Of a stretch of DNA of 64,000 bases, positions 3,984 through 5,619 are shown in pieces. The translations under genes and the position numbers were made by a program. How positions within the stretch are numbered: position 1 is the stretch's first letter; every line of letters starts with the position of its first letter. Under the pieces are notes generated by a model. The model was not told the DNA's origin. It did no database searches and saw only the letters and a list, made by a program, of their open reading frames with translations. Source of the DNA: Escherichia phage vB_EcoM-G3G7; sequence record MZ234040.1. One strand, given 5' to 3'.

Positions 3984-4180
3984 ATTAACCCAACTAAAGC
4001 AAATGCTAGATCTACGAATGTATCAAGAGTAACTACTGGAATATTAATACCATGTGCAATTGCAATGGGTGATAAAATAAAGTTCCAGAGTAAAATTCCT
4101 ACCATAGCAGAAATAGTAAAAGCTATACGTTTTTTATTACCTTTTATGGCATCAACAAGTGCCATTAATTTTTGTGCCAT
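3980..4180 (-). CDS. Small hydrophobic (membrane) protein, convergent with gene 61
   Basis: 66 aa with two hydrophobic segments; strong SD AAGGAGG 5 nt upstream of ATG on the minus strand. Confidence 0.4.
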   Translation of the reverse strand: MAQKLMALVDAIKGNKKRIAFTISAMVGILLWNFILSPIAIAHGINIPVVTLDTFVDLAFALVGLI

Positions 4181-4224
4181 GTGTCCTCCTTTAAATTAAT
4201 ATTTATCACAAATTTCATAAATTT

Positions 4225-4254
4225 GTTTACTTTCTCAGCTTGTTATGGTATTAT
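4225..4254 (+). promoter_or_regulatory. T4-type early promoter
   Basis: GTTTAC 4225-4230, 18-nt spacer, TATTAT 4249-4254. Confidence 0.55.
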
Positions 4255-4279
4255 AAAATAAATTGCTGAGGATGATATA

Positions 4280-4840
4280 ATGATTAATAAAATTGTACAT
4301 GAAATGGCTTTAAACGGAGATTCATATAAAATATCTGCCGTAGTTGAAAATTTCATACTTAATAAAGTAAAAGAATATTTCACTGATTGTTCAGTTAGTT
4401 ATCAAGAAAAAATGGTTTTAACCGATGATACTGAAAAATCAAATAATTTGTTTTGTTCTAATTTTATAACTAAGAAGCGTACTAGAAGATTTGATATTGT
4501 TATTTCTCGCAACGGTAAAAAGCATATAATTGAAATTAAACACCAAGTTGGTGGAGGTACAGCTATTGATTCGGTTGGAATATATTTAGAAGATAAAGAG
4601 AAATTAAAAGAATACACAAAAACTGAAAACCCTGTGTCATTGATGATATTAGATTTTTTGCCATGCGGATATTATCCACGTAATAAATGGACAAAAAGAG
4701 AATCATTTACTGATAATCCAACCATCCAAGCAAGGTTTAATGAATATGCTAAATCACAAAACGTGTTAGTATTACTATCAAATACATATGATGAAGAATT
4801 ATATAATTCGTTTTTTGCTGCAATAAATGAGAGAATATAA
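4280..4840 (+). CDS. Hypothetical protein with PD-(D/E)xK-like nuclease motif, translationally coupled to dam
   Basis: 186 aa; GAGGA RBS; motif D([12 protein letters not shown])E-I-K; stop TAA overlaps dam ATG (ATAATG). Confidence 0.5.
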
Positions 4841-5619
4841 TGCTAGGAGCTATCGCGTATACAGGTAATAAACAATCATTATTACCTGAACTTAAGCCTC
4901 ACTTTCCAAAATATGACAGATTCGTGGATTTATTTTGTGGAGGTTTATCAGTGTCTTTGAACGTCAATGGTCCTGTATTGGCCAATGATATTCAAGAACC
5001 AATTATTGAAATGTATAAGCGTCTTATTAATGTATCATGGGATGACGTTTTAAAAGTAATAAAGCAATACAAACTATCAAAAACATCAAAAGAAGAGTTT
5101 TTGAAATTACGTGAAGATTATAATAAAACTAGAGATCCTCTTTTACTTTATGTTCTTCATTTTCACGGGTTTAGTAATATGATTCGTATAAACGATAAAG
5201 GAAATTTTACTACTCCGTTTGGAAAAAGAACTATAAACAAAAATAGTGAAAAACGCTTTAATCACTTTAAACAAAATTGTGATAAAATAATCTTTAGTTC
5301 ATTGCATTTTAAAGATGTCAAAATTCTAGACGGCGATTTTGTATATGTGGACCCTCCATATCTTATAACAGTTGCTGATTATAATAAATTTTGGTCAGAA
5401 GAAGAAGAAAAAGACCTTTTAAATCTTTTAGATTCTTTAAATGACAGAGGAATAAAATTTGGACTGTCGAATGTTTTAGAGCATCACGGAAAGGAAAACA
5501 CTCTTCTTAAAGAATGGTCTAAAAAATATAATGTTAAGCATCTTAATAAAAAATACGTCTTTAACATATATCATTCCAAAGAAAAGAATGGAACTGATGA
5601 AGTATATATTTTTAATTAA
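4840..5619 (+). CDS. dam: DNA adenine methyltransferase Dam (N6-adenine, GATC)
   Basis: 259 aa as T4 Dam; DPPY catalytic motif; FxGxG-like AdoMet region DLFCGGLS. Confidence 0.9.

Follow-up and report, generated by a model that had tools for sequence, protein, structure and literature searches.

A putative nuclease gene next to dam in T4-like phages suggests a phage-borne restriction-modification-like cassette

We analyzed a 64,000-nucleotide stretch of DNA (the window) from Escherichia phage vB_EcoM-G3G7 (sequence record MZ234040.1), and in particular an open reading frame (ORF) of 186 amino acids (aa) that lies between gene 61, which encodes the primase, and dam, which encodes a DNA methyltransferase. 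On balance, we believe that this ORF and dam make up a mobile, phage-borne cassette that resembles a type II restriction-modification system, with a nuclease that probably cuts at GATC and is blocked by Dam. What is new here is a family of putative nucleases that is found in a restriction-modification-like cassette, is confined to virulent T4-like phages, and has no Pfam model. The cassette and its main parts are:

4192-5619, plus strand: accessory cassette (early promoter, nuclease-like ORF, and dam), missing as a block from most Tequatrovirus genomes
4268-4272, plus strand: GAGGA, the Shine-Dalgarno sequence of the 186-aa ORF
4280-4840, plus strand: the 186-aa ORF, a putative PD-(D/E)xK protein that resembles a type IIP restriction endonuclease (PHROG 8706)
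4837-4842, plus strand: ATAATG junction, where the TAA stop codon of the ORF (4838-4840) and the ATG of dam (4840-4842) share 1 base
4840-5619, plus strand: dam, a D12-class N6-adenine DNA methyltransferase (T2/T4 Dam; GATC), identified by Pfam PF02086 (MethyltransfD12, 173.9 bits) and by the annotation of T4

An initial annotation had described an ORF at 4280-4840 whose stop codon overlaps the ATG of dam, and this is what the sequence contains. Judging from its layout, the ATAATG overlap would allow the translation of dam to be coupled to that of the ORF. The Dam protein of the window is 100% identical to T2 Dam, and gene 56 (dCTPase) comes next after dam.

Comparisons of homologous sequences indicate that the 186-aa ORF is a real gene under purifying selection. 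Within Tequatrovirus, the ratio of nonsynonymous to synonymous substitution rates (dN/dS) was 0.05-0.16 for the ORF and 0.02-0.08 for dam. When we aligned nine sequences of the family, down to 29% identity, 23 residues were invariant. Given the dN/dS and the conservation, we rejected the idea that this is a chance ORF.

The family that the ORF belongs to (PHROG 8706, function unknown) is small. A word-indexed search together with an exhaustive HMMER profile search found just 11 relatives among 1.84 billion representative proteins, and those whose context we examined were all on DNA from T4-like phages. A scan of metagenomes added one further, Jiaodavirus-like copy, while a search of IMG/VR gave nothing new and a search of NCBIfam with the 186-aa protein gave just noise. 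There were no homologues in 185,579 genomes of bacterial and archaeal species, so a bacterial source for the nuclease could not be identified.

Every homologue, down to 29% identity, is directly upstream of a gene for a D12-class methyltransferase, and the pair occurs in three different genome contexts. The first is the context of the window, between genes 61 and 56, which is shared by five metagenomic relatives (L006-L009 and L014). The second is between denB and ndd: in the Klebsiella phage KPV15 (a Jiaodavirus), a homologue with 41-44% identity lies there and overlaps the start of the gene for Dam. The third is directly upstream of rIIA, in the metagenomic relative L012. (Two other relatives, L005 and L013, have the pair on short contigs.) With the exception of T2, which is discussed below, the two genes of each pair abut or overlap, with junctions of 1 to 35 nucleotides (nt). 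Also, the ORF and Dam diverge from the window's copies in parallel, with identities of 63% (ORF) and 71% (Dam), then 57% and 72%, 50% and 64%, 44% and 63%, 38% and 57%, and 39% and 54%. By these comparisons, the ORF is strictly linked to Dam and co-diverges with it.

We then counted how often each gene is present. Among 502 Tequatrovirus records with the flank, 183 have dam: about 148 have the ORF and dam, and about 35 have dam alone (the T4 type). The remaining records, about 319, have neither gene. A tblastn search found the full-length ORF in 154 records (148 from Tequatrovirus and 6 from Klebsiella phages), all apparently with dam, and none of these 154 records is a genome with the ORF and without dam. 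In Jiaodavirus, 143 records have the flanks; 6 of these have both genes, KP182 has dam alone, and about 135 have neither. In other words, the methylase is sometimes found alone and the nuclease never is, as one would expect of a restriction-modification module. This asymmetric loss suggests that the ORF is harmful, or else useless, without the methylase. The initial annotation had proposed a functional pairing with dam, and both the co-diverging synteny in three contexts and the presence of both genes, just the methylase, or neither, and never the nuclease alone, are in keeping with that proposal.

Genomes that lack both genes show where the cassette ends. Phages RB68 (L010) and PST (L011) align to the window through 4191 and resume at 5640, with 20 nt between; this 20-nt join begins with TTGCTT, just as the window does at 5620. 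In these phages, a conserved 66-aa ORF (see below) is followed by about 70 base pairs (bp) and then by gene 56. Because RB68 and PST lack both genes, the unit of presence or absence is the ORF and dam together, at about 4192-5619.

Phage T4 has dam without an intact nuclease gene. The missing part is:

4213-4752, plus strand: segment missing from T4 (540 bp), with the promoter of the cassette and codons 1-158 of the ORF (by BLAST against AF158101)

T4 (AF158101) aligns by BLAST to the window at 2901-4212 and at 4753-6198, so it retains the last 88 bp of the ORF. There is microhomology (ATCACAAA) at both breakpoints, and the breakpoint is identical in all of the T4-type records that we sampled (query position 474, which is window position 4753). 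Since T4 keeps the 3' end of the ORF, the difference is due to a deletion in T4 and not to an insertion in the window. The initial annotation had described the 856 bp between genes 61 and dam as an apparent insertion and as possible accessory cargo. The region does include an accessory element; however, we rejected the insertion relative to T4, as the end of the ORF is still there, the accessory unit includes dam, and just the 540 bp at 4213-4752 are extra.

T2 carries a different lesion (L004, 2001-2546). A 1-nt deletion in a run of Ts turns the conserved C-terminus FFAAINERI into FLLQ*, and this frameshift places the stop codon 13 nt upstream of the ATG of dam, so that the two are uncoupled. 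The remnant in T4 shares the C-terminal change of T2, which implies that the deletion in T4 arose from a T2-like allele. (In another phage, G4500, a frameshift splits the ORF in two; L019, 1201-1760.) Thus, the well-known orphan Dam of T4 and T2 is the methylase of the cassette: the window's Dam is identical to that of T2, as mentioned above, and has a dN of just 0.0105 relative to that of T4. T4 Dam sits beside the 88-bp remnant of a nuclease gene, after a 540-bp deletion, whereas the window's Dam is not an orphan. The lone dam of T4 is a decayed cassette that lost its nuclease gene by deletion.

The case that the ORF encodes a nuclease comes from its predicted structure and its conserved residues. 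As modeled by AlphaFold, the 186-aa protein has a PD-(D/E)xK nuclease fold, with an alpha-beta-beta-beta-alpha-beta nuclease core (predicted local distance difference test, or pLDDT, of 79; predicted template modeling score, or pTM, of 0.79). The residues that we consider to be important are:

4346-4348, plus strand: codon of E23, an acidic residue in the first long helix (helix 1), invariant in the alignment of homologues
4493-4540, plus strand: codon of D72 (4493-4495) through those of E85-I-K87 (4532-4540); the D...ExK is putatively catalytic and does not vary among 9 sequences with identities as low as 29%
4541-4573, plus strand: codons of H88-Q89-V-G-G-G93-T-A-I-D-S98, a candidate DNA-recognition element after the catalytic strand, with invariant columns

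In the model, D72 is on strand 2 (residues 67-77), and E85 and K87 are on strand 3 (residues 80-88). Within the candidate recognition element, H88, Q89, and G93-S98 are invariant and positions 90-92 are variable. Even the most distant relatives (P0011 and P0013, with 29-32% identity) retain E23, Q42, S54, R69, D72, E85, K87, H88, and Q89, as well as G93-T-A-I-D-S98, P118, S120, and D125. The initial annotation had proposed this fold from a candidate D...ExK motif, FDIVIS...HIIEIK. Both parts of the motif are present, its D...ExK is invariant down to 29% identity, and the predicted structure agrees with the proposed fold. The residue numbers that it gave (D81/E95/K97) were off by about ten, and the actual ones are D72/E85/K87.

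We compared the model to known structures with Foldseek. Among the matches listed, MunI had the highest TM-score (0.59/0.56 over 185 columns) and was the only full-length superposition; EcoRI was also among them. A search of viral folds (BFVD) found one close homologue, which is an uncharacterized protein, and otherwise just generic nuclease folds. A Pfam scan of the 186-aa protein found no match to the EcoRI or MunI families, no GIY-YIG or HNH domain, and no sensor domain such as CARF. The protein forms one compact domain, and neither the Pfam scan nor the model includes a winged-helix or other methyl-reader domain.

A protein with a nuclease fold might have some other role, such as a non-cleaving DNA-binding regulator or partner of Dam, or a nuclease that acts on RNA or on branched DNA. 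Several PD-(D/E)xK proteins that are not restriction enzymes (Can2/Card1, McrC, Bax1, VC1899, and XisH) also score well in the fold searches, and all of the sequence-based links between the 186-aa protein and restriction enzymes are below threshold. We consider such a role to be fairly unlikely: none of the catalytic residues (E/D/E/K) varies, the Pfam scan shows no sensor domain of the CARF or any other type, the one full-length superposition among the matches listed is with MunI, and the asymmetric loss (the ORF is never seen without dam) suggests an ORF that does harm or is of no use when the methylase is missing.

If the protein is a restriction-type nuclease, then what might it recognize? 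The best family in Pfam for the window's protein is the GATC enzyme DpnII (PF04556), with 16.8 bits, E = 0.0045, and an alignment to profile positions 152-235 of 278. The gathering threshold for PF04556 is 23 bits, so by the Pfam criterion the 186-aa protein is not a member of the DpnII family. More broadly, 4 of the 9 family members match PF04556 (best E = 8.3e-5), and PADLOC's REase_II model matches at 9.1e-5, in comparable parts of both the protein and the profile.

For a direct comparison, we used a DpnII seed sequence that scores 335.7 bits against PF04556 and shares 99% identity with a protein in the database. When the family was aligned by hhalign to 18 retrieved DpnII proteins, the result was E = 7.4e-4, with a probability of 25.6%, over 91 columns; all 18 proteins are at least 63% identical to the seed, and with such low diversity this profile-profile test is underpowered. 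The alignment pairs E23 with E152, D72 with D201, E85 with E214, and K87 with N216 of DpnII, and it brings the glycine-rich loops together; E152, D201, and E214 are invariant in DpnII. The family's profile, when run against 120 DpnII proteins, gave a median of 8.0 bits, and 0 of 2,400 shuffled sequences reached this median (the top shuffle scored 7.2), but these proteins are close relatives, so their scores amount to one observation. Finally, in a model of DpnII (pLDDT 72), the C-terminal half has the same order of secondary-structure elements as the 186-aa protein. A remote relationship to DpnII is plausible on these sequence comparisons, and is not established by them.

The cassette as a whole resembles the DpnII and MboI systems in that a D12, Dam-type GATC methylase adjoins the nuclease gene. 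The nucleases differ: the 186-aa protein lacks the N-terminal region of DpnII (about 145 residues; 186 aa versus about 280 aa), and it has a canonical ExK where DpnII has ExN. Also in contrast to those systems, the ORF was seen in virulent T4-like phages and nowhere else.

The 186-aa protein also shares features with the MunI/EcoRI class of type IIP enzymes (PDB 1D02 and 1ERI). It is similar in size to MunI (about 200 aa), and in both cases D...ExK is on the second and third strands. The string E-x-K-H-Q is identical to E111-A-K-H-Q of EcoRI, and the later element G-x-A-I-(D/E)-x resembles G140-N-A-I-E-R of EcoRI; at the level of motifs, this part of the protein resembles AEAKHQG...GNAIERS of EcoRI (we checked this fragment in PDB) and EVNFYSGGSKLNE of DpnII. 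The shared sequence is limited to the short strings ExKHQ and G-x-A-I-D/E, and there is no detectable homology (searches of PDB, with a profile as well, gave no chain at E <= 10). Dam, its partner, modifies GATC and is not an AATT methylase. Where EcoRI contacts bases through N/E/R, the 186-aa protein has T/D/S, so we would expect it to have a different target sequence.

The cassette seems to have its own promoter, with an associated stem-loop:

4226-4254, plus strand: T4-type early (sigma-70) promoter of the cassette (TTTACT, 17 nt, TATTAT, with an upstream TG)
4234-4270, plus strand: inverted repeat CTCAGC (4234-4239) / GCTGAG (4265-4270) around the -10 box, resembling a PeSL (promoter-early stem-loop); its 3' arm overlaps the Shine-Dalgarno sequence

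The -35 region, GTTTAC, is at 4225-4230, and the extended -10 element, TGgTATTAT, ends at 4254. A consensus scan of this AT-rich window for promoters found 11 sites, versus 13.3 in shuffled sequences, which is no better than chance, so we do not accept the scan by itself as evidence. The early promoter that the initial annotation assigned to the ORF nonetheless holds up on other grounds: phage JB75 has a promoter annotated at this site, and each homologous cassette (L006, L014, KPV15, and L012) is likewise preceded by GTTTAC...TATAAT. The window's stem is weak (folding z = -1.85), and stems are predicted more strongly for KPV15 (-2.9), L014 (-2.7), and L012 (-5.0). Across five lineages, with z from -1.85 to -5.0, the structure is kept while the sequences of the stems differ.

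A promoter and a stem-loop directly upstream of the cargo matches the PeSL cassettes of T4-type phages, as defined by Arbiol et al. 2010 (PMC2839356). Like the PeSL cassettes that carry ORFans, the cassette has an early sigma-70 promoter, a stem-loop at the -10 box, and a non-core gene in a variable region, and genomes either have or lack it as a unit between conserved genes. Those cassettes carry a single ORFan (PMC2839356), whereas here the cargo would be a functionally coupled pair of genes. At the 3' junction of the window's cassette, we found no second stem-loop; a TATAAT at 5640-5645 has no stable stem (z = +0.86) and was not called by the promoter scan.

Mobility could also be explained if the ORF encodes a homing-type endonuclease, which would cut the genomes of cassette-less phages at a specific site during mixed infections, so that recombinational repair copies the cassette in, much like the seg and mob genes of T4, with dam as a passenger or as a protector of the carrier's own site. 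Some genomes have the cassette between conserved genes and others lack it, its position differs among genera of phages, and T4-like phages have many free-standing homing endonucleases (in T4, segF adjoins this locus). However, an enzyme that targets a single locus would not be expected to be strictly linked, in three unrelated insertion contexts, to a GATC methylase that co-diverges with it, the protein has no similarity to the GIY-YIG or HNH families in Pfam, and the PeSL-like promoter and stem-loop element already explains the mobility. We therefore consider a homing role to be unlikely. The two readings do overlap, as a selfish restriction-modification cassette that attacks the unmethylated genomes of competitors would look like homing.

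Returning to a restriction-modification-like cassette, we propose the following mechanism; from the sequences and the models, we infer the nuclease activity, the dimerization, the specificity for GATC, the sensitivity to methylation, the biological target, and the translational coupling. The ORF would encode a compact nuclease of the EcoRI/MunI class, probably a homodimer and dependent on Mg2+, with E23/D72/E85/K87 as its active site, and the invariant G-T-A-I-D-S element after the catalytic strand would probably read the DNA sequence. Both proteins would be made early, from the cassette's own sigma-70 promoter, and translation of Dam would probably be coupled to that of the ORF via the TAATG overlap. 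The nuclease would most likely cut at or around unmethylated GATC, and methylation by Dam would prevent the cut. This would spare Dam-methylated host DNA as well as the phage's own DNA, which would be methylated by Dam and, in T-even phages, also modified with glucosyl-hydroxymethylcytosine. The nuclease would instead cut non-methylated cytosine DNA in the infected cell, which might come from phages that co-infect or superinfect, from other mobile DNA, or from Dam-deficient hosts. The cassette would move among variable regions of the genome on its PeSL-like promoter and stem-loop element, and it would decay as expected for a restriction-modification system, with the nuclease gene lost first (as in T4 and KP182) or both genes lost.

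Within the window, GATC is the most depleted of the 4-bp palindromes: trinucleotide counts predict 212 sites and there are 76 (a ratio of 0.36). The second-lowest ratio is 0.63, for TCGA. There is a single GATC within the cassette, at 5134. Selection against Dam sites in enterobacterial phages has reportedly been seen before.

An alternative is that the nuclease depends on methylation, as DpnI does: it would cut G-m6A-TC, made by the Dam of the phage or of the host, in cytosine DNA and help to destroy the host's chromosome, while glucosyl-hydroxymethylcytosine shields the phage. Such an enzyme would have an abundant substrate, as the host chromosome is Dam-methylated; the few GATC sites in the window would mean low exposure of the phage's DNA; and co-expression with Dam from one early transcript would fit. 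We think that this is quite unlikely. The 186-aa protein consists of one domain, without a winged helix or any additional domain for reading methylated bases, and its closest structures, among the matches listed, are orthodox type IIP enzymes. In Dam-positive hosts, a methylation-dependent nuclease would have no need of a linked methylase, yet the ORF was never found without dam. Also, a survey of genes in Jiaodavirus phages found no hydroxymethylase or glycosyltransferase genes (PMC5219037), so in the Jiaodavirus phages that carry the cassette, their own Dam-methylated DNA would be a target. If the nuclease is instead sensitive to methylation, then protection of these phages' own DNA would have to come from Dam. 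Because the cassette is also present in these phages, in which the survey found none of those modification genes, a methylation-sensitive nuclease fits better than a methylation-dependent one.

Several observations weigh against our preferred interpretation, that the ORF and dam are a restriction-modification-like cassette with a nuclease that is blocked by methylation of GATC. The ORF is often lost (about 64% of Tequatrovirus records lack both genes), it is frameshifted in some phages (at the C-terminus in T2, and in G4500), and T4 grows without it. This frequent loss would fit a dispensable function that matters in some situations. A search of PDB sequences, with either the single 186-aa protein or the family profile, found no chain at E <= 10. 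The link to DpnII has problems as well: the window's protein is below the gathering threshold of PF04556 (16.8 versus 23 bits), hhalign's probability for the pairing was just 25.6%, the model of DpnII has about 145 additional N-terminal residues that are missing from the 186-aa protein, and K87 stands where DpnII has N216. The similarity could merely reflect a motif that is common to all PD-(D/E)xK nucleases. There is also the question of the substrate. The DNA of E. coli and of Klebsiella is already methylated by Dam, and the DNA of T-even phages is hypermodified, so an enzyme that cuts unmethylated GATC would have no obvious abundant substrate during a normal infection. Given these protected hosts and phages, the likely substrates would be competitor DNA or foreign DNA.

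There is a precedent for a lytic virus with this combination of genes: a chlorovirus encodes both an endonuclease, R.CviAI, and a GATC adenine methylase, M.CviAI. Chloroviruses infect hosts that lack Dam methylation, and there the enzyme acts on the host's DNA, whereas the enterobacterial host of the window's phage already has protection from its own Dam.

The ORF is labelled as a "hypothetical protein" in over 150 genomes, and the other records that we examined carry an evident mis-annotation. The ORF, or a region with it and the 66-aa ORF, is a "head outer capsid protein" or a "putative head morphogenesis protein" in GADU22 and in T2 (AP018813), and Sf25 has it as a "putative effector protein"; these appear to be mislabels. 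Several records call Dam "fokIM." The GenBank entry for T2 dam (M22342, from 1988) contains the entire ORF, unannotated. We looked for a known and unrelated function that was already annotated at this locus and found none, just the hypothetical proteins and PHROG 8706. We also found no description of the 186-aa ORF in the literature (REBASE was outside the scope of this search).

The window belongs to Tequatrovirus (T4-like phages). The interval between genes 61 and dam is 100% identical to that of vB_EcoM-CHD2BS1 and related phages. Upstream of the cassette are:

2955-3983: gene 61 (primase)
3980-4180, minus strand: a conserved 66-aa ORF that is also carried by T4

The 66-aa ORF is included in the 856-bp interval between 61 and dam. 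It converges on gene 61, with a 4-nt overlap with the stop of 61, and it has a perfect AGGAGG Shine-Dalgarno sequence. It belongs to PHROG 2024 (function unknown) and is a "membrane protein" in some records. The stretch that holds it matches all 502 of the Tequatrovirus records that were found; its sequence is in T4 too, without an annotation in AF158101. In L014, the relative whose ORF is 63% identical to the window's, an extra 93-aa ORF with a weak MazG-like match (4010-4291) separates the 66-aa ORF from the nuclease-dam cassette.

Two nearby loci also vary. Between genes 56 and soc, the window has a different 66-aa ORF (6198-6398; PHROG 5782, with the label "virion structural protein"), where T4 has the homing endonuclease gene segF, so the locus that neighbors the cassette is variable as well. 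Upstream of 61.1, the window has a 118-aa ORF (2430-2786; PHROG 4122, function unknown), and T4 has 61.2 at that position. RB68 has both the 118-aa ORF and 61.2, while JB75 and T2 have the 118-aa ORF and no 61.2, which makes this another polymorphism of presence and absence.

The Dam proteins of T4 and T2 are textbook enzymes that have been treated as orphan methyltransferases, without a clear function for the phage. The cassette offers a simple evolutionary account of them, as members of a conserved pair of genes whose other member is a restriction-type nuclease. It also points to a compact, 186-aa family of nucleases that is found only in phages, that has no Pfam model, and that could have a new restriction specificity. 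Because Tequatrovirus isolates with and without the cassette are both common, the use of restriction-modification by virulent phages against competing DNA is directly testable. More generally, relying on reference strains can hide genes, as illustrated by an ORF that has sat unannotated in GenBank since the 1988 entry for T2 dam. More tentatively, and at somewhat less than even odds in our view, T-even-type phages may carry an active and unrecognized family of Dam-sensitive restriction endonucleases, in a selfish mobile cassette with Dam that takes part in conflicts between phages or with mobile elements, and of which T4 Dam would be a relic. If so, the classic laboratory strains hid the enzyme, which was deleted in T4 and frameshifted at its C-terminus in T2, and T4's "orphan" Dam, which has lacked a clear biological role, would be what is left of the cassette.

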